From positions 3,696 to 67,695 of the forward strand of contig CAYGYG010000013.1 of NCBI GenBank assembly GCA_964354155.1: a DNA stretch of 64,000 bases, given 5' to 3'. Origin of the DNA: an uncultured bacterium. Lineage in GTDB: Bacteria > Hydrothermota > Tepidihabitantia > SM23-42 > CAYGYG01. Shown piece after piece: positions 25,215 to 48,805 of the stretch (its first letter is position 1; each line of letters begins with the position of its first letter). A program made the position numbers and the translations under genes. The notes beneath the pieces were generated by a model, which saw only the letters and a program-made list of their open reading frames with translations, was not told the DNA's origin and did not search any database.

Positions 25215-25237
25215 TAATCGACGATGTTTCATCGCTC

Positions 25238-25522: not shown

Positions 25523-25579
25523 GCTAGAGCCAACGAATTGCCTCAATAGCCAATTACCAACAACAACCAAGGAGCTAAC

Positions 25580-27568: not shown

Positions 27569-27597
27569 GGCCTGCGAAGGAGCGAAATAGCAGCGCT

Positions 27598-27652
27598 GAC
27601 CAGATGACCAGAAGATCAGTGGGAAGGGTACCGGCAGATCAGGTGATCAGTG
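27598..27652 (-). repeat. Left inverted arm (CTGAT family) of four-helix-bundle cassette 1
   Basis: Reverse complement aligns ungapped to 28072-28126 at about 36/55 positions (hand count). Confidence 0.7.
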
Positions 27653-28062: not shown

Positions 28063-28071
28063 ACGACACGC

Positions 28072-28272
28072 GTCTGATGTGCTGATATGCCGATATCCTG
28101 GCTACTGATATTCGGATATCCTGATATGCTGCCTTCGGCATCGATTACAGTGATGGCAGGACTGAGATCCCTCGCTGCCCTCGGGACGATGTAAACATCG
28201 GATTACGATGATTCATTGCTGATTTCTGCTGTGCTGATACCCTGCCCACTGATGCCCGGATGCGCTGATATG
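28072..28272 (+). repeat. Right arm of cassette 1 (28072-28126) and a second direct CTGAT-family copy (about 28222-28272)
   Basis: CTGAT/CCGAT/CGGAT recur at 8-12-nt spacing. An inverted ATCACTGTAATC unit lies at 28143-28155. Confidence 0.7.
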
Positions 28273-28295
28273 CTTGAACTAATGAGGTCAACCCC

Positions 28296-31148: not shown

Positions 31149-31176
31149 CCCCGTTAGACTGGAAGTCTAAACGGGG
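31149..31176 (+). repeat. 28-bp hairpin repeat, copy 3
   Basis: Identical to copy 1; lies directly upstream of the hicBA promoter (TTGACG-N16-TATAAT, 31210-31237). Confidence 0.9.
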
Positions 31177-31243
31177 TAATCGACGGTGCCCTGCACCCAG
31201 AAGATGGGCTTGACGTGGTCCTCTCAAGGAGTATAATGCAATC

Positions 31244-31471
31244 ATGAAGAGACGTAAGACGGAATACACCGTGATCATGCATCCGGCCGAAGAGGGCGGT
31301 TACTGGGTCGAAGTGCCGGCGCTCCCCGGATGTTATTCGCAGGGGGAGAGCGTAGAAGAGGCCCTTGAAGGCATCAAAGAAGCCATTGAGGTGCACCTGA
31401 TTGCCCTGAGAAAACAGGGCAGGAAGGCACCCAAGGACCAGACCCTCGTGCTCAGTCACGTGGAAGTCTAG
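31244..31471 (+). CDS. hicB: HicB family antitoxin (HicB-like N domain), probably leaderless
   Basis: YTVI.HPAEEGGYWVEVPALPGC.SQGES.EEAL..IKEAI. Confidence 0.9.
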   Translation: MKRRKTEYTVIMHPAEEGGYWVEVPALPGCYSQGESVEEALEGIKEAIEVHLIALRKQGRKAPKDQTLVLSHVEV

Positions 31472-31504
31472 GGCCTACTTCCTCCATTGCTTTCCATCTC
31501 TTGA

Positions 31505-31726
31505 ATGGGCAAACAACTCAGAGGACTCAAAGCCAGAGAAGCGATCATAGCTTTCGTGCGGGCTGGCGGAGTTCGGAAACTTGGCAAGGGCAGTCACGTC
31601 AACATTAAGATGCCCAACGGCATGATTATGACAATTCCGGGGAAAGGCGAACTCAAGATCGGCTTGCTGAAAAACGCGATTCATAAAGCAGGTCTGACCG
31701 AAGAGCAATTCGCTCGCCTGCTCTAG
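31505..31726 (+). CDS. hicA: HicA family toxin
   Basis: L.G....E.I.AF...G.....GKGSH...K......TIP....LK.GLL...I..AGL..E.F..LL. Confidence 0.88.
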   Translation: MGKQLRGLKAREAIIAFVRAGGVRKLGKGSHVNIKMPNGMIMTIPGKGELKIGLLKNAIHKAGLTEEQFARLL

Positions 31727-31858
31727 CGGTCACCCGATCTTCCGACCGCTTATACCCCTCCCACTGATTCGCTGATCTTCTGATCTACTTGTTTTCTTTT
31801 CACCCTTTACGTTTTCCCCTTCACCTTTAACCATTCACTGACATAATAGGAGGCCTTA

Positions 31859-33529: not shown

Positions 33530-33587
33530 AAAATGATCCCGGATGCACGATGCAGGATACTCGATAGCCAAGGTAAGGAGATCAGCA

Positions 33588-33968
33588 ATGACACGATACA
33601 CTGACCTGGAAATCTACAAACTAGGACACAATCTGGCCGTTGAAGTCCACAAGATGACCCTAGCGGATTTGCCAAAGTTCGAGATGTTCGAGGAGGGCGG
33701 TCAGGTCAGGCGTTCCTCAAAGTCCATCGTCAGCAACATCGTTGAGGGCTATGGCCGGCGGCGCTACAAGCAGGAGTTCATTCAGTTTCTCACCTATGCA
33801 ATGGCTTCGTGTGATGAAACGAAAGAGCACCTGCAGTTGCTATGGGATACGGATTCACTCAAGGACAGAACGCGATTTGTGCACTTTTCTGAGGGGTATG
33901 AGAAGCTGGGCGCCAAACTCAACAGTTTCATAGCTTCCGTCATAAAAGGCCATCTCTCACCTAGGTAG
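33588..33968 (+). CDS. Four helix bundle protein
   Basis: [45 protein letters not shown]. Confidence 0.9.
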
Positions 33969-34190
33969 CGCTTCTTGTAGCTTCTCCTGTGTCCATCCTG
34001 TATCTTGTGTCGTTCATCTTGTTTCATGCCTTGCATATCGTGTATCGAGTATCCTGGATCTTATCTCGTGTCATTCTCGTCGTTCCTGCTTCGCATCATG
34101 TATCCTGGATCCCATGCCGTTCTCTTTTATCGTGTATCCTGTATCGAGTATCATTCTTTTCCATCGTGTATCATGTATCGTGGATCAGGC
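33969..34190 (+). repeat. Heptamer (TATCNTG-like) periodic tract; an inverted block lies upstream of the gene at 33541-33567
   Basis: tatcgtg-tatcgag-tatcctg-gatc blocks. Upstream ggatgca-cgatgca-ggatact-cgatag is the reverse-complement pattern. Confidence 0.8.
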
Positions 34191-34266
34191 CTTAAACCCG
34201 TTGTTGACAATTCTCGCCCTATGGATACACTTCATGTAGGAGATGACCTAATAACCTGTTCTTCAC

Positions 34267-35352
34267 ATGCGATCTAAAATCCTTCTAATCAATCCGGACG
34301 AAGCGGAGATTTCTCAGCTCCAGCATCTGCTGGAGACTGAGGGTCATAAGGTCAAGAAAGTCTACTCGGGCGAGGCGGCTCGCCGCGTCTGCGAGGACGA
34401 TACTTACGACCTGGTTCTTGTCTCCAGCACCCTGAAGGACACCAATGTCGGCGAGCTTATCCACAAACTGCGCCAGCCCTGTCCCGAGACCGAGTTTATC
34501 ATCATTACGAACCTGGCCCAATTCCAGAATCTGTCCGGCGTGAGCCACTATGATGTCGCCGGCTATCTCATTCCGCCGATCACCGAGGACAAGGTGCGGG
34601 AGGTTTCCCAGCGGGCGATCCGTCAGCACGAACTGCTCCGGGAGAACCGGCGTCTGATCGACGCCATCACCCAGGCCAAGAAGGAGTGGGAGGCGACGGT
34701 CGACGCCATCGAAGACCCGATCTTCATCGTCGATGCCGACCACAAAATCGTCCGCGCCAACCTCGCGCTGTTCCGGATGCTCAACAAGGGCGTTTCCCAG
34801 GTCATCGGCCAGAAGTGCAGTATCCTGCTCCACATGTCCGATGCCGCGCCGTCGGATTGTGTCATGGAAACGGTCAAGCGCGAGGCCGGCCCGATCACGT
34901 CCGACCTTACCTGCCGGGGTTTGGGCGACGGCAAGTACATCTGCGCCGCCTACCCGCAGATATTCGTCGGGGGATTCGGCACGGTTCATGTCCTGCGTGA
35001 TGCCCGGAAAGTCATCGGTGACGACCGCTACCGCCAGACCTTCGAGAAGAACCCGGTGCCGTCCCTGCTTCTCGAATACGACACCAGAAAGATTATCGAC
35101 GCAAATGCCAAAGCCCGCAACCTGCTCGGCTACAAGAAGGACGAGCTGATCAACGTAGCGTTTGACCATTTTCTGACCAGTGAGGACCGGGACAGCATCA
35201 TCATGGCCATGCCCAAGAATTTCAACGGCATGATTCACGAGGTGAAAGCCCAGGTCCTCAACCGCGAGAATCTCAAGCTCCAGGTCCGGCTCAGCTTCGG
35301 TATTGTTGAATTCGACAAGAAGATGGTCCTTCAAGTCGTCATCATCCCGTAG
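34267..35352 (+). CDS. Response-regulator receiver plus two PAS domains, no output domain
   Basis: REC-like N-terminus, KKEWEATVDAI.DPI...D....I.RAN PAS, second PAS (IDAN..A..LLGY...EL). Promoter TTGACA-N16-TACACT at 34204-34231. Confidence 0.8.
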   Translation: MRSKILLINPDEAEISQLQHLLETEGHKVKKVYSGEAARRVCEDDTYDLVLVSSTLKDTNVGELIHKLRQPCPETEFIIITNLAQFQNLSGVSHYDVAGYLIPPITEDKVREVSQRAIRQHELLRENRRLIDAITQAKKEWEATVDAIEDPIFIVDADHKIVRANLALFRMLNKGVSQVIGQKCSILLHMSDAAPSDCVMETVKREAGPITSDLTCRGLGDGKYICAAYPQIFVGGFGTVHVLRDARKVIGDDRYRQTFEKNPVPSLLLEYDTRKIIDANAKARNLLGYKKDELINVAFDHFLTSEDRDSIIMAMPKNFNGMIHEVKAQVLNRENLKLQVRLSFGIVEFDKKMVLQVVIIP

Positions 35353-35481
35353 GTTCCTCTTTTTTCTTCACCTTTTTCTGCGCCTGGCGCTTTGTCAAAT
35401 CCGCAATCCAAAATCTTAACGGTGCTTTATCGCTGTAATCGTGTGTTCTTATCACTGTAATCTACGCGTAGCGACGCGGAG

Positions 35482-35580
35482 CGTGGCAATCCCATTCTCT
35501 GTGTGCATCCTTATTCTCTCTACTTGCTACTCGCTACTTATTACAGCATCCGTTTGCATCCGCTCCCATCCGTTTGAATC
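35482..35580 (+). repeat. ~100-bp near-identical direct repeat, copy 1 (copy 2 at 37857-37962)
   Basis: cgtggcaatcccattctctgtgtgcatccttattctctctactt...actcgctacttattacagcatccg...catccgtttgaatc is shared. Confidence 0.85.
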
Positions 35581-35592
35581 TTTGACTTTCTA

Positions 35593-35799
35593 ATGATGAA
35601 ACGCCTCTGGTGTAATAAATTCCGCTCACGCCGCGATGCCGACCGCTTTGATCAGGTCTACTACGAGCGGATGACGTCAAAGCAGCGGCTGGAGATTGTG
35701 CAGATGTTGAGGGATTCAGTCTTCATGCTGCCTGATATATCCAGACATGAAAACCGAAAAAGACTACGAAGAACTATTAAGGTTGTTCAACAAGCATAA
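35593..35799 (+). CDS. Small hypothetical protein, partner of the downstream nucleotidyltransferase
   Basis: AD.FD..YY..MT..QRLE pattern; overlaps the next gene. Confidence 0.6.
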   Translation: MMKRLWCNKFRSRRDADRFDQVYYERMTSKQRLEIVQMLRDSVFMLPDISRHENRKRLRRTIKVVQQA

Positions 35800-36214
35800 G
35801 GTCAAGTACTGCATCGTCGGAGCCTACGCGGTTGCCTACTATGCCCGGCCGAGATATACGAAGGACCTCGATATTTTCATTGATCCGGTGTGGGACAACG
35901 CGGCACGGCTCGTGAAAGCGTTGGAAGAGTTCGGATTCAAGGGTTTGAACCTACGGCCGGAAGACTTCATGGTCAAGGGAAGCGTGGTTCAGCTTGGTTA
36001 TGAACCGGTTAGGGTTGATATTGTAAGCTCGATCAGCGGCTGTTCTTTCGGCACGGTCTGGAAGAGCCGGGAGGTTGGCCGATACGGGAAAGAAAAGGTC
36101 TTCTTCATCGGTCTGGCCCAGTTGATCAAGAACAAACGCGCCGCGCAGCGCGCGCAGGACAAGGCGGACCTTGAGCTTCTCGCCAAAGTGCGTGCCCGGC
36201 GGCGACCCCGTTAG
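35747..36214 (+). CDS. Nucleotidyltransferase-fold protein (DUF6036-like)
   Basis: VGAYAV..Y..PRYTKDLDI, NK.A..R.QD.ADL. Confidence 0.8.
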   Translation: MKTEKDYEELLRLFNKHKVKYCIVGAYAVAYYARPRYTKDLDIFIDPVWDNAARLVKALEEFGFKGLNLRPEDFMVKGSVVQLGYEPVRVDIVSSISGCSFGTVWKSREVGRYGKEKVFFIGLAQLIKNKRAAQRAQDKADLELLAKVRARRRPR

Positions 36215-36233
36215 ACTGGAAGTCTAAACGGGG
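36206..36233 (+). repeat. 28-bp hairpin repeat, copy 4 (supplies the TAG stop of the nucleotidyltransferase)
   Basis: Identical to copy 1; the ORF ends in CCG-CGT-TAG-like overlap within the repeat (stop at 36212-36214). Confidence 0.9.
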
Positions 36234-36353
36234 TAATCGACGGTGCTCCGCACCGAACGATACTAACGCTCATCGCTGTCCCGTACGGGACGATCTCGTC
36301 AACGCTGTTGATTTTCGTATGATTTGATGTATAATCTACGCAATGGAGGCCTC

Positions 36354-36563
36354 ATGCGTACCACATTACGCAGTGTAACAATAAAAGGCGACAAGCCACT
36401 AGTTGTCATTTCTGCCGAGCAATACGAGAGGATGATGGAAACGATCGAACTACTTTCTATCAACCCTGATTTGGCAGATGACCTAAAGGCAGAAAGAAGA
36501 AGAATGGACAAGGGTGAGTATATCACCCTTAGTGATTATAAGAAGAAATACCGCCGACACTGA
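36354..36563 (+). CDS. Phd/YefM-like antitoxin
   Basis: VVISAEQYERMMETIELLS.NP. GGAGG RBS; promoter TTGATT-N16-TATAAT at 36308-36335. Confidence 0.8.
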   Translation: MRTTLRSVTIKGDKPLVVISAEQYERMMETIELLSINPDLADDLKAERRRMDKGEYITLSDYKKKYRRH

Positions 36564-36832
36564 TGTATCAGGTTCGTTTATCGCACTCCGCTGAGAGGTT
36601 CTTGGATCATATGCACCGATCAAACCGTAGCCTATTCGGCAGACTCATGCAATCCTTGGATAAGGTATCAAAAGATCCCTTTAGCGGGAAGGCGTTAATG
36701 GGGAATCTAAAGGGCCACTATTCGTACCGGGTCGGTGATTACCGAATACTGCTGGAAATCGATAAGGCGAAGCACATCGTCTATGTCGAGAAGATTGAAC
36801 ACCGCAGTGCTGTTTACCAGAGGCACTCTTAG
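36563..36832 (+). CDS. RelE/ParE family toxin
   Basis: MYQV.L...A..FL, P..GK.L.GNL.G.YS.RVGDYRIL..I, I.HRS.VY. Confidence 0.9.
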   Translation: MYQVRLSHSAERFLDHMHRSNRSLFGRLMQSLDKVSKDPFSGKALMGNLKGHYSYRVGDYRILLEIDKAKHIVYVEKIEHRSAVYQRHS

Positions 36833-37116
36833 CGGTCTAAGGTTCTAACGCTTTTAATGTGCTCAACGCTCCTATCACTGTAATCGTGTTTTCTTATCAC
36901 CGTAATCGACGATGCTTCATCGCTGTAATCGATGTGCCTCCGGCACAAACGTTCTAACGATATTAACGTTATAACCCTCTTCATCACTGTAATCAGCCTT
37001 TCTCATCGCTGTAATCGATTCCGCTTCAGCGGAAACCAAATAAACTTGATAAACCAGATAAACCAAGAGAACGTTCCTAACGCTATTAACGATATTAACG
37101 GCAGATGCTTCATCGT
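36833..37116. repeat. Mosaic spacer: five ATCA/GCTGTAATC units, TTCCGCTTCAGCGGAA hairpin, AAACCA tract, TAACG tracts
   Basis: Units at 36872, 36894, 36917, 36981 and 37003; hairpin at 37019-37034. Confidence 0.8.
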
Positions 37117-37458
37117 ATGAAAATCATCAGTGCGCCAACCAACAAAAGTATCATTCTCGCCGAGTACAATCGTTTCTTCAAGACGATGATCAAGGCGGTT
37201 GTGGACATTGACAAGGAAGTGATGGCGCTCGATGCCGAACTGCACGCCGATCTGGAAGCTGTTCTCGTCGGCGAGGGAAGTCGGCAGGAAAACTTATGGG
37301 GCATAAACCTGTACCTGGGGAAACCGCGGGAAGAGTGGATCGAGTACACGGCGCTCGTCAACATCCGGCCCTCGATGGACAACCGGGGCATGGAAGTCGA
37401 GAACCCCGATATTCGCAAGCGGTTGCAGGAAGTCGTGGGCAAGCTGATCACGGAATGA
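37117..37458 (+). CDS. DUF5674-like protein
   Basis: KAVVDI....MA.DAELHADLE..L...GS.QENLWGINLY, NIRP...NR. Confidence 0.75.
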   Translation: MKIISAPTNKSIILAEYNRFFKTMIKAVVDIDKEVMALDAELHADLEAVLVGEGSRQENLWGINLYLGKPREEWIEYTALVNIRPSMDNRGMEVENPDIRKRLQEVVGKLITE

Positions 37459-37459
37459 T

Positions 37460-37810
37460 ATGTATCGGCTGAAATTCCACACGAACCTGGCTTCGCGTTG
37501 GTCTGAATTCCCGCCAAGCACGCAGCTGCTGATGGTGGCAAGCGAGCTGAGCCGTGCCAAGAACATGACGATCCGCCATGACCATGCCGAGGCAACGAAC
37601 GCCCTTGAACGTGCCTTTGAACTGCTCGACATGACCATAAGCCGGGCGCGGACCATTGGGATGCTGACCGAGCTTCACCGTTTCCGCGAAGTACTCGCCG
37701 ATCTCTACTCAGGCGGGGAGTATCAAGCCGAGAGGGTCCAGAAGTTGATTGAAGTGCTCGTGTCACTCGACAAAGACAGCTGCCGCGTCCTCGGCGCCGT
37801 AGCTTCCTAG
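37460..37810 (+). CDS. Hypothetical helical protein coupled to the DUF5674-like gene
   Basis: RW.......QL..V.SEL.RA, LERAFELLD.T, EL.R.RE.L. Confidence 0.7.
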   Translation: MYRLKFHTNLASRWSEFPPSTQLLMVASELSRAKNMTIRHDHAEATNALERAFELLDMTISRARTIGMLTELHRFREVLADLYSGGEYQAERVQKLIEVLVSLDKDSCRVLGAVAS

Positions 37811-38052
37811 CTCGATAGCTTAATCGCCTGATTGCTTAATTTGCCAGTAGCGCGGACGTGGCAATCCCATTCTCTGTGTGCATCCTTATTCTCTCTACTT
37901 ACCACTCTCTACTCGCTACTTATTACAGCATCCGACTGCATCCGCTCTCATCCGTTTGAATCGATGTCCCTCTGGGACAATCGCTCTCATCCCCCGAAAA
38001 TTGCGCTTGCCAATCTTGATGATATGCATATAGTTATAAATAGGAGAATTCG

Positions 38053-38250
38053 ATGACCAAAGTAAAAGAGATCAATCATTATACGCTTGAAGAACTAAGT
38101 GATCTTATCGAGCAGAAGATTCTTGAGATCCTTGGCGATCCGGATTGCGGGTTGGAGTTACGGGAGGATTTTAAGCGGGAGATACTCAGGAGAATCCGTC
38201 AGAAACATAGAAGGATTCCCCACGAAGAGGTTCTGAGAAAGTTTGGCTAA
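38053..38250 (+). CDS. Putative antitoxin
   Basis: 66 codons; overlaps the RelE gene; promoter TTGCCA-N16-TATAGT at 38007-38034; RBS AGGAG. Confidence 0.7.
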   Translation: MTKVKEINHYTLEELSDLIEQKILEILGDPDCGLELREDFKREILRRIRQKHRRIPHEEVLRKFG

Positions 38251-38509
38251 GATCGAGTGGGCTGACTCGGCGATTGCCGACCTTGCAAGGATTGACCGGC
38301 CAATTGCTCAACGCATAGTGAGAAAAGCTACCTGGTTAGGAAGCAACTTTGAAAACATTACCCCTGATCCGTTATCAAAGGACATGAAGGGTCTTTTCAA
38401 ACTCCGGGTCGGTGATTGGCGTATCATTTATACGCTGGAAGACGAGCGAATAACAATTCAATTCGTTGGTCATCGAAGTGACATCTACAAGCGTTTGCAG
38501 CGCTCCTAA
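38243..38509 (+). CDS. RelE/ParE family toxin
   Basis: IEW...A..DL..ID, L.....GLFKLRVGDWRIIY, VGHRSDIY. Confidence 0.9.
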   Translation: MAKIEWADSAIADLARIDRPIAQRIVRKATWLGSNFENITPDPLSKDMKGLFKLRVGDWRIIYTLEDERITIQFVGHRSDIYKRLQRS

Positions 38510-38743
38510 CGCTCAAAGTGATCTGAACGCTCCTATCACCGTAATCAGCCGTTTCATCACTGCGCCGTCGTGTGCGCCCTGAGTATTTCGAGGGGTAATC
38601 GATTCCGCTTCAGCGGAAACCAAACAAACCAAAACCAGATAAACCAGACAAACCAAAATGCCCATTTGACCCCAGGGGACCTTTGACCCCGTAGGTACAT
38701 CTTTCTATAATGAAGAAGAGCAGTAATTTAAGGAGGTGTTCAC

Positions 38744-38968
38744 ATGAAGCAAGTCAAGATTATCGTTGAAAAACATCCCGACGGCTATGTGGCTTATCCC
38801 CTAGGGCTTAAGGGGGTTGTAGTTGGACAAGGAGATACTTACGAAGAGGCTCTTTCAAATGTGAAGTCAGCCATCCGTTTTCATATTGAGACTTTTGGGA
38901 GGGAGGTCCTTGAGCTTGAGCCGCCGATCCTTGAGGCATTCGTTGCTGAGGCTGGAGTCGAAGTTTGA
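38744..38968 (+). CDS. hicB: HicB family antitoxin
   Basis: IIVEKH.DGYVAYP.GL.G..VGQGDTYEEAL.NVK.AI.FH. Confidence 0.85.
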   Translation: MKQVKIIVEKHPDGYVAYPLGLKGVVVGQGDTYEEALSNVKSAIRFHIETFGREVLELEPPILEAFVAEAGVEV

Positions 38969-39207
38969 TGAATAAGTTCCCTGTTGATGCCCCAAAGCCA
39001 AAGATAATCAAGGCATTGGAGGTTCTTGGTTTTCGCGTTGTGCGTGAAAAAGAGCATATTTCCATGGTGCGTGAGAATCCTGATGGAAGCAAGACTCCCT
39101 TGACCATGCCTAATCACCCATAGATAAAGGCCTCTACTCTAAGAACGATTTGCACTCAAGCGGGTATCTCAAGGAATGAATTCTTGGAAGCCTATAAGAA
39201 AGCATAG
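38968..39207 (+). pseudogene. hicA: HicA family toxin with in-frame TAG at 39121-39123
   Basis: MNKFPVDAPK..IIKALE.LGF..VREKEHISM...TMPNHP*IKASTLRTICTQAGISR.EFL. Absent from the supplied ORF track. Confidence 0.8.
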
Positions 39208-39382
39208 ATATGGCAACGGCCGATAACAGCGCGGTTGTACTTAGTTTCCCTCACATCCCGCGGCCTTGCCGCTCAAATGTAGAATGTAGAGCTGAAAGTC
39301 CCGTCCTCAGGGAATTTGACCCCAGGTTCTCCTTGACAGAAGGACAAAAAGTGAATAATATATCCTTCGTATAAGGACAAAA

Positions 39383-40669
39383 ATGGTTAGCGCTGAGACG
39401 ATAAAGGAAATCATTAGATCAAACGAAGATTTCATCCTAAGGGAAATAGGCGCGGTTGTCGCACGAGAGGGTCTGTGCCTGCCTTCGGGGACCCGCAAAG
39501 TAGGGGTGATCTACGGTGTTCGGCGCAGCGGCAAGACCTTCCTGCTCTACGATCTCTTCAAAAAGCATGCCACCGGTGCTCTCTATATCGATTTTGAGGA
39601 CGAAAGGATCAGGGACATACGTCTGGGGGATCTGGAAAGGATCAAAGACGCCTTCTTCGAGCTGAAGCCTCAGCTTTTGGGCAAAGATAAATGCCTATTC
39701 CTGTTTGATGAGATTCAAAATGTGCCCGGCTGGGAGAAATTCGCGCGGCGGATGGTTGAAAAGGAACGAATCGGTATATTCGTGGCTGGTTCGTCTTCAA
39801 AGATCACGCCCCGGCAACTCCACACGTCTCTGCGGGGCCGGGCATGGTCCATCGCTCTTTATCCGTTTTCTTTCCCGGAATTCTTGAGATTGAAAGGTAT
39901 TGATCCATCCCGACCGATCTATGGTAAAGGCCGCGTTCTTGTAAAAAGCTGGTTCATGCAGTACTTAAAGTGGGGCGGATTCCCCGAGATTGGCTTTTCG
40001 GAATCGGATTTCGAAAGGACCAAAATCCTCGGCGAATACCTAGATGCAATGTTTTTCAAGGATCTAGTTGAGCGATTCAACATCACCAATATCCATCTCC
40101 TTGAGGCCCTCAAGGAGAGTCTGTTTTCGTCTTTTTCGGGGAAATTCTCACTTGCCTCTTTCTACAAGCAATACAAAGGCAAGTTCCCGTTTTCCAAAGA
40201 CATGTTGTACTCCTATTATCGATACTTCACGGAGAGCATGTTGGTTTCCGAGGTCAGACTGTATTCCCCGTCGGCATACCGGCGAATGAGAAATCCACCT
40301 AAGGTCTACCTCGTGGATCCGGGCCTGGGGCGTAAGCTGGGGACACAGGACCTCGGTCGTCGGCTTGAAAATCTGGTCTTTATCGAATTGAAAAGGAAGG
40401 GATACGAACTTCACTATTTCGAAGAGCGGAATGAGTGTGACTTTGTGGTGAAAGAAGATGCTAATACAAGGCGGGCGATTCAAGTCTCCTGGGAATTGAA
40501 CCAAGACAACCGCGAACGAGAAATAAACGGTCTCTGTCAGTGCTGCCGTTCACTCGGCCTGAAACATGGTACAATCATAACGTCTGACCAGGAATCCGAG
40601 GAGCGAATTGACGGTATTGCTGTGAGGGCGATTCCCTTCTGGAAATGGGTAACACAAGCAAGTCCATAG
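39383..40669 (+). CDS. AAA_14 family ATP-binding protein with C-terminal DUF4143 (nuclease-like) domain
   Basis: GVRRSGKT Walker A, FDEIQ Walker B, GGFPE, K.Y.VDPG, EN.VF.EL, ECDF. Confidence 0.9.
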   Translation: MVSAETIKEIIRSNEDFILREIGAVVAREGLCLPSGTRKVGVIYGVRRSGKTFLLYDLFKKHATGALYIDFEDERIRDIRLGDLERIKDAFFELKPQLLGKDKCLFLFDEIQNVPGWEKFARRMVEKERIGIFVAGSSSKITPRQLHTSLRGRAWSIALYPFSFPEFLRLKGIDPSRPIYGKGRVLVKSWFMQYLKWGGFPEIGFSESDFERTKILGEYLDAMFFKDLVERFNITNIHLLEALKESLFSSFSGKFSLASFYKQYKGKFPFSKDMLYSYYRYFTESMLVSEVRLYSPSAYRRMRNPPKVYLVDPGLGRKLGTQDLGRRLENLVFIELKRKGYELHYFEERNECDFVVKEDANTRRAIQVSWELNQDNREREINGLCQCCRSLGLKHGTIITSDQESEERIDGIAVRAIPFWKWVTQASP

Positions 40670-40722
40670 TTGACGCTATTAATCCATCCCGCCTGTCACG
40701 TGTGATCACCTATTACATCGTG

Positions 40723-40800
40723 GTTAGACTGGAAGTCTAAACGGGGTAATCGATTCCGCTTCAGCGGAAACCAAATAAACTTGATAAACCAGATGAACCA
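40723..40800 (+). repeat. 5'-truncated 28-bp hairpin followed by TTCCGCTTCAGCGGAA and AAACCA tract
   Basis: gttagactggaagtctaaacggggtaatcgattccgcttcagcggaaacc; same order as at 42125-42205. Confidence 0.85.
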
Positions 40801-40821
40801 AGAGGACGTTCTAACGAAATC

Positions 40822-41235
40822 ATGAAACTCCAATCCTTCCAGGACCTTAAAGTGTGGCAGTTGTCTTCAGCATGTTCAAATGATATATCACAGTTGATCA
40901 AAACCTTCCCCCGTGCTGAACGTTTTGAACTCGCTGATGATCTTTTGCGTGCAGCGCGATCTGTACCAGCTAACATAAGCGAAGGATGGGGGAGATTGTT
41001 CCCAAAAGAGAAAATATCATTCTACAATATTTCTTACGGTTCAGCCGAAGAGTGCTCTAACCACTTAATCGAAGCGCTCAACAATGGCTATATAGATAAT
41101 GAAACTAACAGTAGATATCAAAAGAGAATACACGTTATTTCTGTCAAACTTACCAATCTCATTATTTCCACGCGCAAGCGTATCAATTCTTCAGTCCCGC
41201 AGGGACGTGTCTCCAGTCTGCAAAAGCAGCCGTGA
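40822..41235 (+). CDS. Four helix bundle protein
   Basis: SFQDLKVWQ, FP..E.F.L...L.RAARSVPANISEG.GR. Confidence 0.9.
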   Translation: MKLQSFQDLKVWQLSSACSNDISQLIKTFPRAERFELADDLLRAARSVPANISEGWGRLFPKEKISFYNISYGSAEECSNHLIEALNNGYIDNETNSRYQKRIHVISVKLTNLIISTRKRINSSVPQGRVSSLQKQP

Positions 41236-41320
41236 CTTCAGGAGTGAAACGACATGATTACAGTCCGAAGGACGTATTCTGTTCAGGCGTAGCCGTGACT
41301 CCAGGAGTGAAACGACGTGA
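41228..41320 (+). repeat. Two 30-bp direct repeats (28/30 identical, 63-nt period) interleaved with short tetraloop hairpins
   Basis: agccgtgacttcaggagtgaaacgacatga (41228-41257) and agccgtgactccaggagtgaaacgacgtga (41291-41320). Confidence 0.75.
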
Positions 41321-41429
41321 CCTCAGCTCGCAGAGCGTGTTATGTTCAAAGTAGAGATTTGACCCCAGGTGACGCGGCCTTGGCGCAAACGCCCATTGAC
41401 AGCAAGAAGAATCAAAGTATAATAAGTGT

Positions 41430-41648
41430 ATGACAAAACTGGCTCAGATTAAGAAGAGATACCGGAATGAGTGGCTGGCTTTCCGAGTAGCGAAGGAAAC
41501 ACCAGATGGGCATGTTTATGGTCGGCTGATTTCGCACCATCCTGATCGACGTAGACTTCATGAAATCCTGCGTAAAAAGATGATAAAAGGAGTATATATA
41601 TCTTATTCAGGTCCGTTGGTTAAATCGGGCTATACAGTGATGTTCTAA
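41430..41648 (+). CDS. Small hypothetical protein (DUF5678-like), probably leaderless
   Basis: KKRY.NEW.AF, L..HHPDR..L. ATG 6 nt after TATAAT of a perfect TTGACA-N16-TATAAT promoter (41396-41423). Confidence 0.65.
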   Translation: MTKLAQIKKRYRNEWLAFRVAKETPDGHVYGRLISHHPDRRRLHEILRKKMIKGVYISYSGPLVKSGYTVMF

Positions 41649-42025
41649 TGCAACTTCCGTTAAAAATACCTATCGTAGTGGCAAGAATAAGGGTCGATGG
41701 GCCGAAGGCTTTCCGAGAAATCGATATGATATTTGACACGGGCGCGGTTTATACAATGATTTCTTGGGATATCGCAAAGGATATCGGTTACGACCCAGCT
41801 GTTTCTGAGAAGAGAACATCGATCATAACCGCCAACGGAATAATAGAAGTGCCACTGATAAAAGTCAAAAGAATTACCATCAAGACTGCGGTTGCGGATG
41901 ATGTTGAAGTAATATGCCATGATATTCCGGAAGTGGTTGGAATCGAAGGGCTACTTGGTCTAAGTTTTATAAGGCATTTTCGCACCGTTATCGACTATCG
42001 AAAGAAACAATTGCTGATAAGTTAA
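41648..42025 (+). CDS. Retropepsin-like (clan AA) aspartic protease
   Basis: IFDTGA catalytic motif, GLLGL.F. TAATG coupling to the upstream gene. Confidence 0.85.
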   Translation: MQLPLKIPIVVARIRVDGPKAFREIDMIFDTGAVYTMISWDIAKDIGYDPAVSEKRTSIITANGIIEVPLIKVKRITIKTAVADDVEVICHDIPEVVGIEGLLGLSFIRHFRTVIDYRKKQLLIS

Positions 42026-42124
42026 TCCGTCTACATCCGCTCTGATCCGTATGAATCGCGTTCTATCTTATCACTGTAATCAGCCGTTTTATCACTGTCA
42101 TCGACGATGCTTCATCGGTGCCTG

Positions 42125-42152
42125 CCCCGTTAGACTGGAAGTCTAAACGGGG
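42125..42152 (+). repeat. 28-bp hairpin repeat, copy 5
   Basis: Identical to copy 1. Confidence 0.9.
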
Positions 42153-42255
42153 TAATCGATCCCGCTTCAGCGGAAACCAAACAAACCAAAACCAGATAAA
42201 CCAGACACTTGACTTTTCCTGGTCAATCGATAATATCGTTCATGGAGGTGAACAA

Positions 42256-42777
42256 ATGTTCGTACTCATGAACAATAAATCATCGCTGGGTCTTCTGGAG
42301 TTTCTTATTACCAGCGGTGGCGAACTTCACGTCCGGGAGATTTCACGAAAGACGGGACTCAGCCTGGGATTTGTGAGCCGTGTGCTCCGTCAATTACATA
42401 AGGATGGCCTGATTTGTGCCCAGAGGAGAGGCCGTATGTTGCTGTACCGTGTTGATCACGCCAACGCGGTTGTGAAGCAGATCAAGGTACTGGTAACCGT
42501 CGCCGGGCTCTATCCGTTGATTAAGAAGTCTCGGACACTAGCTCGGCGGGTCATACTATTCGGTAGTGCCGCCCGCGGCGAGAATATGCCGGACAGCGAT
42601 GTCGATCTTTTCATCATGACCAACGACCGATCGAGCGTCCGGTCGTTCGTAAGCATGTATCCGGGAGTTGTCCCGATAATAATGCGGAGCACCGAGTATG
42701 CCAACCTTAGAAAAACGGATTTTGCCCTATACGATCAAATCAGCCGCGGGATAATCTTATGGGAGAAAAGTGAATAG
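42256..42777 (+). CDS. HTH plus minimal nucleotidyltransferase (MNT)
   Basis: N-terminal wHTH; LFGSAARGE...DSDVDL. GGAGG RBS. Confidence 0.88.
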   Translation: MFVLMNNKSSLGLLEFLITSGGELHVREISRKTGLSLGFVSRVLRQLHKDGLICAQRRGRMLLYRVDHANAVVKQIKVLVTVAGLYPLIKKSRTLARRVILFGSAARGENMPDSDVDLFIMTNDRSSVRSFVSMYPGVVPIIMRSTEYANLRKTDFALYDQISRGIILWEKSE

Positions 42778-43198
42778 CGATTTTAAGAAGTGCCTGGAGG
42801 ATCGTAGATTAGTGGTATTCAAGACTTCGCCGGTGATGATTAAGAAGGAACTGAAGTCCGCCGAGTATGACTTGAAAAGAGCGCGAATTTCACTGAGAGA
42901 GAATGACGCTAAATGGGCAACCATTCAGGGCTATTATGCGATGTTTCATACAGGCCGTGCTTTAATCTACACGAAAGGATACCGTGAGAAGAGTCATCGT
43001 TGCCTGGCAATAGCCTTGAAGGAGTTGTTCGTTGATCAAGGCAAGTTACCGACCGAATACTTGAATCATTTGAAGGACGCCATGGACTTACGTGAAGATG
43101 CGGATTACGGTTTTATCTACGATGGAGAATCGGCAAAGAGCATAATAGACCGTGCCGACAAGTTCCTCGGTTACGCTAAAGGCCTGTTGAACGTATGA
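42770..43198 (+). CDS. HEPN domain protein (MNT-HEPN pair)
   Basis: A..DL..A, YYAMFH..RAL, SH, R..ADY. Confidence 0.88.
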   Translation: MNSDFKKCLEDRRLVVFKTSPVMIKKELKSAEYDLKRARISLRENDAKWATIQGYYAMFHTGRALIYTKGYREKSHRCLAIALKELFVDQGKLPTEYLNHLKDAMDLREDADYGFIYDGESAKSIIDRADKFLGYAKGLLNV

Positions 43199-43408
43199 TG
43201 AACGTGGCTGAGGGTTTTGCTCGTGAGACCGACAACGAATTCATCCGCAGCTTGGCTACCTGGCAGCCTGGCAACTGGGCAATCGGGCAATCGAGCAACG
43301 GGGCAAAGAGCAGGACATGGAATGCTGGAACGGTGCGTTGCACCGCAATGACGCTCTGACGCAATGACCCAATGACGTTTTTTCTTTTTCTGACCCAATG
43401 ACTCTTCC

Positions 43409-43810
43409 ATGAGAATCGCCCGTTTCCAGGACTTGCTCGTATGGAAGTTGTCGTCAGAGCTGGCCAAGGATGTCGCCACCAGGCTTGCTTCTTTGTTTCC
43501 GAAAAGTGAGCAGTATCGACTCGGTGATCAGATAATCCGGTCTTCTCGGTCCGTACCGGCTCAGATATCCGAAGGTTTCAGAAAATCCTCTTTGAAGGAG
43601 AAACACCACTATTACGAAATGGCAACGACATCTAACGATGAAACTGAGAATCATCTTGTTGAAGCATACAATAACAGATTCATTGACGCTGGAGTCCTAA
43701 GGCGGTATGTCAATCGGGTTGTTCGTGTGCGTATTCTTCTATCTCGCCTCATGGCGTCAATCCGTCATTTGGAAACCGTGCGGCGCACTAAGCCGGCTCG
43801 TAGAGCCTGA
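43409..43810 (+). CDS. Four helix bundle protein
   Basis: RFQDL.VW, FP.SE.Y.L.DQI.RSSRSVPA.ISEG. Confidence 0.88.
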   Translation: MRIARFQDLLVWKLSSELAKDVATRLASLFPKSEQYRLGDQIIRSSRSVPAQISEGFRKSSLKEKHHYYEMATTSNDETENHLVEAYNNRFIDAGVLRRYVNRVVRVRILLSRLMASIRHLETVRRTKPARRA

Positions 43811-43835
43811 ACCACGCGTTACAGCATGAGTTTTC

Positions 43836-44044
43836 CCGCTCATGAAATGAGCTTCTACCGCATCCCTGATGCCATCTGTTGCCGCGCGCAGCGCTAAACC
43901 CGTTCGGCGAAGCTGAACTACAACCGTCATCTTATGACCAATCCCGCATTCTTCTGCCATCTTTCCCGCCGTCTGTTGCCGCGCGTCAGCGCCACAACCG
44001 CTCATGAAATGAGCTTCTACCGCATCCCTGATGCCATCTGTTGC
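43836..44044 (+). repeat. 47-bp exact direct repeat (43836-43882 and 43998-44044) with small hairpins
   Basis: ccgctcatgaaatgagcttctaccgcatccctgatgccatctgttgc occurs twice. Confidence 0.85.
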
Positions 44045-44105
44045 TTCGCGACCATCTGTTTGGATTTGACCCCAGAGGGTCTTGACTCTTAACAAGGAGG
44101 GCTAT

Positions 44106-45491
44106 ATGAAGTTCAGAGCAGTTCTGGTTATCTTGCTCGGCGTCGTTTCCCTCGCCATCGGCTGGACTCCTCGCAAGCTCGTCGCGAGCTATCCAGCATG
44201 GAACTACTGGTGGCTGAACACCAGGATCGGCGCTGACCGTTTTGACACCGTCTACTGCGCGGTCGCCCGTTACAATTACTCACAGAGCGATCCGGATCAC
44301 GACCTCTATATCCTCAACAGCGAAGGGGATACGATCCGCAAGCGGAGTCCCTGGCATGGCTACGAGTACCAGCCGATCGTCCAGGACGCGGCCGGCACCA
44401 ACATCTACATCGGACAGCCGACCATAGGGTTCTGGATTTCCAGCAACTACCACATGGACGGCGGTGCAACGGATGATTCCAACCAGATCCACTCTTCACG
44501 GGCGAATTCAGGCGACGGTGTCTACTACACAAAACTTGCCGCCAACGGCGGCCGGATCTACTACAACGTCAAGATCTACACCGGTTCTCCCTGGGCCGGT
44601 AAATCGTATATGGCGATCGACCGGCGCAACTTTCTCTATATCGCCTGGGGCGACAACACCCAGTACTTGGTCTATGCGAAGTCGACCGACCGCGGCGCGT
44701 CCTGGGTCATTGACACGCTGTTCAATATGAGTGTTCTCGCCCAGCCCAAGGTCGTTTGCGATGCCAGCAACAACGTCCATTTTGTCTGGCGCACCTGGAC
44801 CAGCGGGTGTCAACTTCGCTATATGAAACTGCGGCCTGATGGTGCCTGCGCTGTGGATAATTCGATCTTCGCGTCCGCTTCTGAAACCTGGGATCCTCAG
44901 ATTGCGCTTGACCAGGGCAACAATATCCACGTCGTCTATACAGATGCGGCTTCGGGCGGTCACAATATCTACTACACGGCTATAAAAGGCTATCTCGACA
45001 AGAACGGCCAGCCGGCTTCTGACTCCGAGCTCACGGTCGTGAAGGACACGGCGATCCAATATGATGCGGTGGGCCTGGCCTATCCCAAGATCGCGCTCGA
45101 TGTCCGGCAAAGGCCCCAGGTTATCTTCGAGCAGGGCCAGTACGGCAACAACACCGACAAGGCCGTCTATCACATCCGCGGCGATGCGATAGTATCGGTT
45201 GAAGAATCTGAAATCGTCCGCATGCAGCCCAGACTTCCTGACATATCGGTCTATCCCAATCCTTCTTCGGGCAGGGTCTCGGTCGTATACTATGTGCCGA
45301 GTGCAACAAGCCACAAGCTGACTGTGACGGATGCAGCCGGTCGAACCGTCATTGGCCCGAGGTCGATCAAGGCTGTTTCGGGTACGAACCGACATTCGCT
45401 GGACATGACATTGCTCCCTTCTGGCGTCTATTTTGTGCGAATATCTTCATCTTCTGGCGCTGCTTTCCACAAACTCCTGCTCTTGCGTTGA
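44106..45491 (+). CDS. Exported beta-rich (BNR/propeller-like) protein with T9SS-like C-terminal tail
   Basis: Signal peptide, S.D.GASW Asp-box, H.VW/H.VY repeats, YPNP...D..GR.V...LPSGVYFV. Confidence 0.75.
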   Translation: MKFRAVLVILLGVVSLAIGWTPRKLVASYPAWNYWWLNTRIGADRFDTVYCAVARYNYSQSDPDHDLYILNSEGDTIRKRSPWHGYEYQPIVQDAAGTNIYIGQPTIGFWISSNYHMDGGATDDSNQIHSSRANSGDGVYYTKLAANGGRIYYNVKIYTGSPWAGKSYMAIDRRNFLYIAWGDNTQYLVYAKSTDRGASWVIDTLFNMSVLAQPKVVCDASNNVHFVWRTWTSGCQLRYMKLRPDGACAVDNSIFASASETWDPQIALDQGNNIHVVYTDAASGGHNIYYTAIKGYLDKNGQPASDSELTVVKDTAIQYDAVGLAYPKIALDVRQRPQVIFEQGQYGNNTDKAVYHIRGDAIVSVEESEIVRMQPRLPDISVYPNPSSGRVSVVYYVPSATSHKLTVTDAAGRTVIGPRSIKAVSGTNRHSLDMTLLPSGVYFVRISSSSGAAFHKLLLLR

Positions 45492-45546
45492 TGTCTATCA
45501 CCGTAATCTGCCGTTCTTATCACCGTAATCGATCATTATGCCGATA

Positions 45547-45618
45547 ATGAAGAATTTTGCCCTAATCGGTGTTGCCGGCTACATCGCCCCTCGCCATTTG
45601 CAGGCGATTAACGTATGA
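45547..45618 (+). pseudogene. 5' remnant of a WbpB/WlbA-type Gfo/Idh/MocA UDP-sugar oxidoreductase
   Basis: MKNFALIGVAGYIAPRHLQAI closely matches the WbpB N-terminus; it stops after 23 codons, overlapping the wecB ATG. Confidence 0.75.
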
Positions 45619-46772
45619 AGGTCATTCACTGCGTCGGTGCGCGACCCAACTTCATGAAGATCGCGCCGGTAATGCGCGAAATGGCCAGATACCCTGACAA
45701 GTTTGACCAGATTCTGGTCCACACCGGCCAACATTATGACGACAGCATGTCGAAAGTCTTCTTTGAAGATCTGGGTTTACCTGACCCCGATATCTACCTG
45801 GGCGTAGGTTCTGCTCCGCGGGACCAGCAAATCGCCAAGATCACGGCCGAGTTTGAGAAAGTCCTGCTGAAAGAAGAGCCTGATGTGGTCGTCGTCGTCG
45901 GTGATGTGAATTCTACCCTTGCCTGCGCCCTCGCCACGGATAAGTTCCGCCGTTCCCAATCACTCAATAACCAATTACCAATAACTGCGATCGGTGGTCG
46001 AAGACCGCTCATCGCCCACGTCGAGTCCGGCTTGCGTTCGTTCGACCGCTCCATGCCTGAGGAGATCAATAGACTTGAGACCGACAGAATTGCAGATCTT
46101 CTGTTCACCACGGAACCCAGCGGCAACGAGAACCTCAAGAATGAGGGCATCCCGAAAGAGCGGATTCACTTTGTCGGTAACGTCATGATCGATTCGCTGA
46201 TCGAATACGCGGGGAAAGCAGAAGAGAATTGGAGTATCTTGAAGAACCAGTTTGGCGACGGTCCGTTTGTGCTTGTGACTCTTCATCGTCCCAACAATGT
46301 TGACCAACCGGAAACACTGCGTAACCTGATGCATGCGCTGAACGAAGTCGCTAACAACCTACCGGTCATCTTTCCAGTCCACCCCCGCACCCGCAAACGC
46401 CTTGCGGAATTCGGCCTTCTCAATAACTCAATAACTCAATTACACAATAACTTCAGGCTTTCGGAGCCTGTCGGCTATCTTGACTTCCTTGCCCTGATGA
46501 AGCATTCTGCCCTGGTGATCACCGATTCGGGTGGGATCCAGGAGGAGACAACCTTTCTGGGCGTTCCCTGCCTGACGGTCAGGCCAAATACCGAACGTCC
46601 GATCACGGTCGAAATCGGCACAAACCGCCTGGTTGTCGTCGATAGCTTGGTGGAAACCGCCCGGGCCTCGCTGGACGGGTCACGACCGAGCCGACGCCGA
46701 GTGCCCGATCTGTGGGACGGTATTGCAGCAGGGAGAGTTGTGGAGATACTGGCAGTCAAGGCTCCAGTTTGA
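45615..46772 (+). CDS. wecB: UDP-N-acetylglucosamine 2-epimerase (non-hydrolysing)
   Basis: VGARPNFMK, HTGQHYD, GDVNSTLA, HVESGLRSFD..MPEEINR, TDSGGIQEE, R.NTERP. Confidence 0.95.
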   Translation: MKVIHCVGARPNFMKIAPVMREMARYPDKFDQILVHTGQHYDDSMSKVFFEDLGLPDPDIYLGVGSAPRDQQIAKITAEFEKVLLKEEPDVVVVVGDVNSTLACALATDKFRRSQSLNNQLPITAIGGRRPLIAHVESGLRSFDRSMPEEINRLETDRIADLLFTTEPSGNENLKNEGIPKERIHFVGNVMIDSLIEYAGKAEENWSILKNQFGDGPFVLVTLHRPNNVDQPETLRNLMHALNEVANNLPVIFPVHPRTRKRLAEFGLLNNSITQLHNNFRLSEPVGYLDFLALMKHSALVITDSGGIQEETTFLGVPCLTVRPNTERPITVEIGTNRLVVVDSLVETARASLDGSRPSRRRVPDLWDGIAAGRVVEILAVKAPV

Positions 46773-46773
46773 C

Positions 46774-48798: not shown

Positions 48799-48805
48799 CG
48801 TCCAA

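Follow-up and report, generated by a model that had tools for sequence, protein, structure and literature searches.

A variable array of toxin–antitoxin and candidate defence modules separated by mosaic repeats in an uncultured Hydrothermota bacterium

The array described here occupies 35.4–44.1 kb of a 64-kb stretch of DNA (i.e. the window; contig CAYGYG010000013.1, positions 3,696 to 67,695 of the forward strand) from an uncultured sediment bacterium of the Hydrothermota, with candidate division WOR-3 containing its nearest named relatives. Ten compact + strand modules (M1–M10), consisting of toxin–antitoxin (TA) pairs and candidate phage-defence genes, fill this segment between a response-regulator gene and a gene for a cargo protein sorted by the type IX secretion system (T9SS), and are parted by spacers (J0–J10) composed of short repeats termed bricks. 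Genes were assigned by family searches (i.e. Pfam, PADLOC and NCBIfam), with the Pfam scans covering essentially all + strand open reading frames (ORFs) of the window. The array was compared with the same site on a contig of a sister lineage (i.e. L005) and with fragmentary contigs from public metagenome runs (X1–X9). A preliminary description, made from the sequence of the window, had proposed comparing module content and order between relatives and mapping the breakpoints to the bricks; content and order were found to vary, and the breaks fall in bricks.

The ten modules of TA or defence type named in that description are present and nearly all of its labels were upheld by the family searches, including those of the two four-helix-bundle genes (M7 and M10, both 23S_rRNA_IVP). 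Enrichment for TA and defence functions was evident from two ParE_toxin matches, HicA/HicB and MNT/HEPN matches above or near the Pfam cutoffs, and the PADLOC matches to PDC-S01 (M6), PDC-M08B (M8) and PDC-M05A/B (M9). The PDC systems are candidates derived from 'guilt by embedding' and the antiviral activity of most is untested (PMC12988326). Two labels held in part. M3, described as a DUF5674 pair, contains one DUF5674 protein and its 116-aa partner is not a second; the aspartic protease of M8 was recovered, and the 72-aa ORF preceding it gave no match to DUF5678, leaving that part of the label unconfirmed. The stop codon of M1 falls within a copy of a 28-nt hairpin brick. The hicA gene of M5 is broken, as had been noted, by an in-frame TAG at 39121–39123, with the remainder of HicA in frame to 39207. 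In run X2 this codon reads AAG (i.e. T39121A), yet the gene is disrupted there by a 20-nt deletion at 39041, indicating that the HicA toxin was inactivated twice independently whilst hicB was kept. Coordinates of these and the other features are collected in Table 1.

Table 1. Modules, spacers, flanking genes and predicted promoters of the array, and the corresponding site in the sister lineage. Positions are those of the window unless L005 is named.
Feature	Position	Strand	Content	Evidence or identity
Y1_Tnp/IS200-like HUH protein	10301-11323	+	340 aa with C-terminal extension	Pfam Y1_Tnp 39 bits, cutoff 23
Response-regulator/PAS gene, left anchor of hotspot	34267..35352	+	orthologue P0002 at same position in L005	Pfam; 88% identical
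J0	35353..35592		ATCRCYGTAATC units, hairpin, 110-nt brick (repeated at 37857-37973), ATCCG 10-nt units	
M1	35593..36214	+	68-aa ORF and nucleotidyltransferase-fold protein	weak MNT/AbiEii-like match
J1	36215..36323		28-nt hairpin, GTAATCGA + CGGTGC hairpin, another hairpin, M2 promoter	
M2	36324..36832	+	Phd-like antitoxin and ParE/RelE toxin	Pfam ParE_toxin 36 bits, cutoff 23
J2	36833..37104		densest mosaic: five ATCRCYGTAATC units, three GTAATCGA hairpins, AAACC tract, YTAACG units	
M3	37105..37810	+	DUF5674 protein and 116-aa partner of unknown family	Pfam, DUF5674 9e-30
J3	37811..38052		second copy of 110-nt brick, ATCCG units, GAATCGA hairpin, M4 promoter	
M4	38053..38509	+	65-aa ORF (antitoxin candidate) and ParE/RelE toxin	Pfam ParE_toxin 1e-12
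J4	38510..38743		bricks, GTAATCGA + TTCCGC hairpin, AAACC tract, ATTTGACCCCAG box (38664), M5 promoter	
M5	38744..39207	+	HicB-like antitoxin and inactivated HicA toxin	Pfam
J5	39208..39382		ATGTAGAATGTAGAG brick (39283-39300), ATTTGACCCCAG box (39314), M6 promoter; without GTAATCGA hairpin	
M6	39383..40669	+	AAA_14/DUF4143 ATPase	Pfam; PADLOC candidate PDC-S01, 7e-93
J6	40670..40821		28-nt hairpin, GTAATCGA + TTCCGC hairpin, AAACC tract	
M7	40822..41235	+	Avd-like four-helix bundle, 23S_rRNA_IVP / TIGR02436	Pfam, NCBIfam
J7	41236..41429		63-nt tandem repeat x1.9, ATTTGACCCCAG box (41357), GCGGCCTTGGCGC hairpin, M8 promoter	
M8	41430..42025	+	72-aa ORF and aspartic protease Asp_protease_2	Pfam; PADLOC PDC-M08B
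J8	42026..42255		ATCCG units, ATCACTGTAATC units, CGATG hairpin, 28-nt hairpin, GTAATCGA hairpin, AAACC, M9 promoter	
M9	~42256..43198	+	wHTH-MNT nucleotidyltransferase and HEPN, type VII-like TA pair	Pfam, NCBIfam; PDC-M05A/B
J9	43199..43408		GGCAAC and CAATGA 8-nt unit ladders; without GTAATCGA hairpin	
M10	43409..43810	+	second Avd-like four-helix bundle, 23S_rRNA_IVP	Pfam
J10	43811..44081		mini-hairpin chain (162-nt repeat), ending in ATTTGACCCCAG box (44064)	
T9SS-sorted cargo gene, right edge of hotspot	44082..45614	+	probable start 44103; brick spacer 45492-45614 after gene	
Predicted promoter of M2	36308-36335	+		consensus scan
Predicted promoter of M4	38007-38034	+		consensus scan
Predicted promoter of M5	38683-38711	+		consensus scan
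Predicted promoter of M6	39333-39361	+		consensus scan
Predicted promoter of M8	41396-41423	+	perfect 12/12	consensus scan
Predicted promoter of M9	42209-42236	+		consensus scan
L005 array, places 1-5			DUF6036 nucleotidyltransferase + HTH; M3; M1; M4; DUF2204 nucleotidyltransferase + 67-aa ORF	BLAST map, ORF/Pfam
L005 array, places 6-8			470-nt hairpin chain; 67-aa ORF + ParE; M8	
L005 array, places 9-10			truncated hicB (matches window copy at 31.2 kb); 71-aa ORF + YafQ-like toxin, premature stop	
L005 array, places 11-12			IVP paralogue + hairpin chain; M6	
M1 block common with L005	L005 4983-5580		from ATG to 21 nt before stop	91%
M3 block common with L005	L005 4201-4881			87%
M4 block common with L005	37997-38524 = L005 5942-6469		promoter included	92%
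M6 block common with L005	39314-40680 = L005 11595-12961			93%
M8 block common with L005	41374-42057 = L005 8804-9487			96%, dS 0.086
dS of modules			M8 0.086; M1, M4, M6, hicB ~0.22-0.24; M3 0.28-0.38	
dS of core genes			response regulator 0.63; OmpA-like 0.93	

The response regulator has one close homologue (i.e. P0002), encoded on the 13-kb contig L005; no close relative was recovered in the genome-contig search. On L005, orthologues of the OmpA-like and response-regulator genes stand in the same order as in the window and are followed by a different array of at least 11 modules. The left flank is thus conserved between lineages and the arrays beside it differ. The right flank of the relative was not recovered, as T9SS cargo and WecB homologues led to non-syntenic contigs. 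M2, M5, M7 and M9 are absent from L005. The 23S_rRNA_IVP (IVP) gene at L005 10770–11171 is merely 79% identical to M10 with a synonymous divergence (dS) of ~2, indicating that it is a paralogue of M10 and not the same cassette. The modules common to both lineages exhibited 87–96% DNA identity and dS values of 0.09–0.38, i.e. 2–10 times below those of the flanking core genes (the response regulator and the OmpA-like gene). As module dS is lower than core-gene dS, exchange of the modules, or their replacement by recombination, appears to postdate the split between the window and L005 lineages.

Variation was also detected amongst close relatives of the window strain. Parts of the region are contained in public sediment metagenomes, with genes in X5 and X8 exhibiting ~99% identity to the window (a few differences per 150–470 nt); M2 was not seen in any public run and exact-protein look-ups of the window modules returned the same strain alone, or nothing. 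M7 is absent from an X5 contig, in which position 40800 is joined to 41342 with 'TA' between, and behaves as a 541-nt insertion (40801–41341); the same empty junction occurs at L005 10477–10539. M5 is absent from an X2 contig that skips from 38682 to 39276. An IVP gene upstream of the array (33543–33968) is absent from X5, X8 and X9 contigs, where 33553 is joined to 34163 or 34078 (sides of 49–108 nt). A copy-number variant of J7 was present in X3. In X2, the end of the response-regulator gene and the start of M3 lie together on one 192-nt contig, a join that is only suggestive given its short flanks.

It is very improbable that these differences are an assembly artefact, i.e. that the bricks caused chimeric joins and unreal orders. 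Short-read assemblies do break in bricks, with one same-strain Logan contig ending at 35511 in J0 and all restarting at 44015 in J10, and M2, J4 and part of J8 are without an independent contig. However, the order of L005 recurs in other JGI contigs (over its first 5.2 kb L006 carries the genes in that order; L058, from the same strain, is 99.97% identical over 2.9 kb) and contigs of X4 repeat the L005 join between M8 and hicB. The window order was confirmed at 100% identity by independent Logan contigs over 31160–35511, 40765–42148 (M7–M8), 42492–43657 (L080; M9–M10) and 44015–55491, and metagenome contigs also confirmed the J3, J5 and J6–J7 junctions.

Mapping of the common blocks placed the ends of modules in or beside bricks. 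The M4, M6 and M8 blocks include the promoters and have ends ≤32 nt from the stop codon. A segment of L005 (11580–11606) matches window 44049–44075 and diverges after ...CCCCAG, directly past a ATTTGACCCCAG box, where the window enters the T9SS gene and L005 enters the M6 promoter. The ATGTAGAATGTAGAG brick lies to the left of M6 in the window and to the right of M6 in L005. M8 starts with a GCGSCCTTGSCGC hairpin in both lineages, and L005 carries a solo GCGSCCTTGSCGC hairpin behind ATGTTCAAAGTAGAGATTTGACCCCAGG, the brick that precedes M8 in the window. Bricks are therefore where joins occur. Other joins are imprecise: similarity in the M1 and M3 blocks begins with the ATG and ceases ~20 nt short of the stop, with the 3' coding ends rewritten, and a 28/28-nt relic of the 5' end of the M2 ParE gene persists at L005 4927–4954, between M3 and M1.

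The spacers between modules are built of repeats, as had been reported, with a small set of short elements recurring in varying combinations. The ATCRCYGTAATC unit is present in 15 copies in the window (0.03 expected) and a 28-nt GC-clamped hairpin (CCCCGTTAGACTGGAAGTCTAAACGGGG) in six. Further classes are ladders of 7–10-nt units, mini-hairpins headed by GTAATCGA, ATCCG 10-nt ladders, AAACC tracts, YTAACG units, the ATTTGACCCCAG box and chains of 5–6-bp hairpins. Hairpins were counted against background positions, an alignment with MAFFT having failed to register stems of unequal length. A perfect hairpin of at least 5 bp starts at offset 0–1 after TAATC[GA]A at 10 of 19 sites in the window and six of seven in L005, as compared to 0.9% of all window positions and 2.5% of spacer positions. 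At least eight different perfectly paired stems share the one GTAATCGA head. TAATCGA is found on the + and - strands in ratios of 15 to 1 (window) and 5 to 1 (L005). The bricks are thus real, structured and oriented elements, although their strand bias is assignable to neither transcription nor replication because all genes of the window lie on the + strand. Mini-hairpin chains, with hairpins such as GCATC-GCA-GATGC, GTCAC-GMA-GTGAC and GCTGC-TCC-GCAGC and linkers CATCT(C/T)TTCCC and CAATCCC, were also observed at L005 7400–7870 and 11170–11590 and window 43811–44060, spanning 420–470 nt in L005 as against 250 nt in the window.

No brick type occurs at all junctions, and bricks are not confined to the array. 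They are also present between genes for a PLP-dependent enzyme and a flavin reductase-rubredoxin (4166–4368), between CTP synthase and M14 carboxypeptidase genes (25047–25579), in the gap between the T9SS cargo and WecB genes (45492–45614) and around solitary modules at 27604–28062, 31244–31726 and 33543–33968. The array is the densest part of this wider pattern of bricks and small modules. Bricks were absent from ~70 loci (500 kb) of other organisms with AAA_14 homologues, and the hairpin brick gave no matches in the genome-contig search. A protein search of metagenome contigs with the AAA_14 ATPase returned 72 loci, of which L058 alone is close, the others being ≤56% identical and without bricks. 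A hairpin in an IMG/VR phage contig (L081, ~7011–7030; GCCCGTTAGACTGGAAGTCTAACGGGC) has 20 nt in common with the 28-nt brick and was judged a chance palindrome, as the contig has no other bricks and no BLAST likeness.

The structure of the bricks bears on a proposal of the preliminary description, in which the bricks would serve a dedicated platform for cassette capture based on REP-like hairpins and possibly HUH chemistry. As formulated here, a functional analogue of integrons would lack an integrase and would rely on an HUH/Y1 enzyme, or another recombinase encoded elsewhere, that reads structure. The combination of a conserved flank with a variable perfect stem at 16 of 26 TAATC[GA]A sites and the near restriction of this motif to one strand would suit such an enzyme; the solo GCGSCCTTGSCGC hairpin of L005 looks like an empty site, the occurrence of one brick on opposite sides of M6 is as a circular intermediate would give, and the window does contain a Y1_Tnp/HUH gene, with module dS below core dS. 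This explanation is nevertheless quite unlikely. J5, J7 and J9 are without GTAATCGA hairpins, bricks lie between housekeeping genes with no module there, breakpoints occur inside genes (i.e. at the ParE relic and where M1 and M3 have rewritten 3' ends), the strand bias is indistinguishable from the direction of transcription and the sole HUH gene has its own 16-bp inverted repeats, which are unlike the bricks. A specific form, in which the GTAATCGA-headed hairpins, the GCGSCCTTGSCGC boundary hairpins and the ATTTGACCCCAG box would be sites of a single-stranded-DNA enzyme that excises and inserts promoter-bearing cassettes, as an independent integron-like invention of an FCB-type lineage, is a doubtful conjecture.

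The Y1 gene encodes a protein with HUH (THFHL) and Tyr (QNRYKS) motifs, and its score against NCBIfam REP_Tyr_transpos (68 bits) falls short of that model's cutoff of 80. Perfect 16-bp inverted repeats (GGGGACGTTGGTTCCG) that start with GGGG bound the gene at 10233 and 11347; these repeats were not found elsewhere in the window and the ends of the element resemble no brick of the window or L005. No link between this gene and the array is therefore evident, and it was rejected as the enzyme of the bricks. The element (10233–11347) resembles TIRtrons, i.e. TIRYT Y1 genes flanked by terminal inverted repeats, many with GGGGWSAS (PMC3733652), in its HUH and Tyr motifs and perfect inverted repeats; it differs in matching GGGGWSAS at only six of eight positions and in having repeats that do not recur in the window and bear no relation to the bricks. 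Genes for an ARMT1-like phosphatase and a beta-helix protein adjoin the element.

Array geometry and content are integron-like, as had been stated, and the reported absence of attC sites and of an integrase was borne out for the 64-kb window. The attC test was a surrogate, i.e. a consensus-plus-fold scan and not the covariance model of IntegronFinder. A strict scan found zero RYYYAAC...GTTRRRY pairs 50–150 nt apart on either strand. A relaxed scan, reduced to the AAC/GTT cores and asking for complementary boxes and for ends that pair when folded as DNA, returned few candidates in the window and L005, nearly all intragenic and none recurring at module ends, and no imperfect palindrome of attC size (50–140 nt) was found within the spacers. 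Amongst the + strand ORFs, Pfam detected no tyrosine or serine recombinase (no PF00589) and no DDE transposase, the sole recombinase-type gene of the window being the one Y1_Tnp. An integron integrase (IntI) would match PF00589 and carry the IntI-specific insertion. A cluster of attC sites lacking an integron-integrase (CALIN) is defined as two or more attC sites (R''-L''...L'-R' imperfect palindromes) <4 kb apart on one strand, and integron cassettes rarely carry promoters (PMC4889954). Since these definitions are not matched, the array appears, within the reach of the surrogate attC scan and Pfam, to be no integron and no CALIN. In place of mostly promoterless cassettes served by a common Pc, six of the ten modules have a predicted promoter; the reshuffling, gain and loss of cassettes as units between strains, a further property of integrons, was observed in L005 and the strain contigs. 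That the array is a true integron remnant, with attC sites too divergent for a consensus scan and an integrase elsewhere, has its attraction in the geometry, the TA content like that of sedentary chromosomal integrons and the shuffled order, and CALINs without a nearby intI are common (PMC4889954). In view of the attC results, the lack of spacer palindromes and of intI in 64 kb, and the promoters, it is exceedingly unlikely.

Promoters were sought with a consensus scan. A near-consensus sigma-70 site (9–12 of 12 matches) was found directly upstream of M2, M4, M5, M6, M8 and M9, in line with the description of most modules as self-promoted, and none was found for M1, M3, M7 and M10. No intrinsic terminator was detected at any module end. 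As terminators are lacking and all genes point in the same direction, the four promoterless modules are probably transcribed by read-through from upstream. Spacers exhibited an ordered syntax of ATCCG units, ATCRCYGTAATC units, hairpins, AAACC or YTAACG tracts and then a promoter or start codon. The YTAACG units, often 2–6 in tandem, were noted directly 5' of the promoterless start codons of M3, M7, WecB, the flavin reductase and the L005 DUF2204 gene (window 37077–37100, 40811, 45608 and 4336–4362; L005 6570–6615), and AAACC tracts were noted ahead of promoters; both may function as leaders or in translation. The ATTTGACCCCAG box, a 12–13-mer, has sharp boundaries and unrelated flanks on both sides at seven sites (window 38664, 39314, 41357 and 44064; L005 6553, 10527 and 11594). 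At four sites across both lineages it was observed 18–19 nt 5' of a TTGAC hexamer, three of these four being scanned -35 elements. The box may serve in regulation, as an operator or activator site, or else as a recombination core. No public RNA-seq run with the region was found.

These features raise the alternative that bricks have no role in recombination and are RNA or regulatory elements (i.e. stabilising or processing hairpins of the 3'-untranslated region (3'-UTR), insulators, leaders or an operator), with turnover by ordinary transfer, flank-mediated replacement and deletion. Their orientation follows transcription, the order within spacers, the spacing of the ATTTGACCCCAG box and the position of the YTAACG units accord with such functions, the four-helix-bundle genes lie between inverted ladders as in rRNA intervening sequences, and repetitive extragenic palindromic (REP) sequences elsewhere act as 3'-UTR elements (PMC3733652; 10.64898/2026.03.23.713779). 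This alternative is, however, rather unlikely, as breakpoints in the window, L005 and strain contigs coincide with bricks in nearly every mapped case and the same brick has different neighbours in different strains. Roles in recombination and in RNA or regulation are not mutually exclusive, and bricks may act both ways.

The array is an accessory hotspot, read here as a TA/defence island that is probably remodelled by general recombination within repeats resembling bacterial interspersed mosaic elements (BIMEs). The sequence comparisons show a hypervariable region at a fixed place, between the conserved response-regulator gene and the T9SS-cargo/polysaccharide locus, which would store compact one- or two-gene modules of a selfish or defensive kind. 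Whole modules are acquired, lost, relocated and traded amongst related lineages, with joints in, or at the edges of, bricks. The process would most likely be general (RecA-type or microhomology) recombination between dispersed bricks, including those on DNA from relatives, together with ordinary deletions; this is the simplest mechanism because it fits both the brick-associated and the imprecise joins, and a dedicated integrase is unlikely. TA addiction and phage selection may keep the region occupied while single toxins decay. Several points weigh against this account. Several bricks are just 12–30 nt, a short length for exchange by RecA; the ATTTGACCCCAG box, with its sharp boundaries, resembles a protein-recognised site more than leftover homology; and the association of GTAATCGA with at least eight different stems on one strand points to selection for a structure that is read. 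Furthermore, the dS baseline consists of two core genes only, the comparison comprises two lineages plus fragmentary metagenome contigs, and M2, J4 and part of J8 are placed by the window assembly alone.

The hotspot reading can be set against known systems. As in the defence hotspots of E. coli, conserved flanks enclose variable TA and candidate-defence content (PDC-S01, PDC-M05, PDC-M08), and as in defence islands the GC content is below that of the flanks and a surface-polysaccharide locus lies alongside. The cargo of E. coli hotspots is usually on integrating prophages, integrative and conjugative elements or transposons (PMC10121019). The array differs in that no such carrier is recognisable in the window, with no integrase, att site or backbone of a mobile element seen, and the unit of change is one 0.4–1.4 kb module. 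With sedentary chromosomal integrons and CALINs (e.g. the Vibrio superintegron; PMC4889954), the array has in common a one-way row of small TA-rich cassettes, own promoters on TA pairs, repeated non-coding elements between cassettes, variable content and order, and a fixed chromosomal place. It is unlike integrons in having no attC-type palindrome with R/L boxes, no IntI in 64 kb and no universal spacer element, and in that most modules are promoted, some breaks lie in genes and the repeats also occur between housekeeping genes.

The bricks resemble REPs and BIMEs (PMC2817692, PMC3733652) in being short extragenic hairpins with a conserved unpaired head in mosaic arrays with other motifs, lineage-specific, length-polymorphic between strains and mostly located after genes between co-directional ORFs. 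They are extragenic and mosaic in both the window and L005, with all copies on one strand. REPs are 20–40-nt palindromes with a GTAG/CGTC head, whereas the hairpins here are 13–28 nt with a GTAATCGA head, many stems per head and one strand in place of alternation. In contrast to REPtrons, in which a cognate REP-associated tyrosine transposase (RAYT) is flanked by the same repeats, the only Y1 gene seen in the window is not flanked by bricks. The NIME/dRS3 arrays of Neisseria are a further parallel to the mosaic bricks.

To our knowledge, the stacking and reshuffling of single-gene cassettes is well understood for integrons alone. The array behaves outwardly like an integron, turning over faster than the surrounding genome, without integron parts or a mobile backbone. 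If general recombination suffices, short lineage-specific repeats would be a source of cassette-level plasticity in uncultured bacteria that has been under-appreciated; if a dedicated enzyme reads the hairpin bricks, it would constitute a new gene-capture system. Surveys of defence islands relying on integrases or attC sites will miss such regions. The natural presence and absence of small candidates (i.e. PDC-S01, PDC-M05 and PDC-M08-like genes, the DUF5674 pair and the nucleotidyltransferase pairs) could guide tests of function.

The setting of the array agrees with its placement just upstream of a polysaccharide locus, as the T9SS cargo gene is followed by genes for WecB, a heparinase II/III-like protein, a flippase, Wzy and glycosyltransferases. 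The T9SS cargo gene may itself be an eleventh, movable module rather than a fixed right flank, because it is bracketed by bricks and its nearest homologue (62%) occurs in a different gene context (L085). GC content is 0.44–0.53 within the array as compared to 0.54–0.64 upstream. Scans for tRNA genes and Rfam families gave no match in the window, and Pfam scans found no integrase, transposase, conjugation or phage gene within or beside the array. The co-orientation of modules in the preliminary description is correct and is not specific to the array: it is a property of the whole region, since every credible gene of the 64 kb is on the + strand and the minus strand contains shadow ORFs only. 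This one-directional stretch (1–64000) is unusually long.

A 533-nt gene-less spacer between the CTP synthase and M14 peptidase genes (25047–25579) contains two 28-nt hairpins and a promoter-like CTTGACA...TATACT with no ORF, and could be an empty module site or encode a small RNA. Outside the array, further IVP-family genes lie at 27604–28062 and 33543–33968 and a hicBA pair at 31244–31726. With M7 and M10, these IVP genes belong to the family of 23S rRNA intervening-sequence proteins and the Avd proteins of diversity-generating retroelements (PF05635, TIGR02436), and have mutually inverted flanks; they differ in being intergenic outside rRNA, in that at least two are insertion/deletion polymorphic (33543 and 40822), and in having no reverse transcriptase nearby. 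The flanks form mutually inverted ladders of units (GATCAG/CTGAT, GATAC/GTATC and GGCAAC/GTTGCC) that resemble the stem of an rRNA intervening sequence, and were apparent at 27560–28300, 33530–34200 and 43199–44060 and, more weakly, at 40746–41341.

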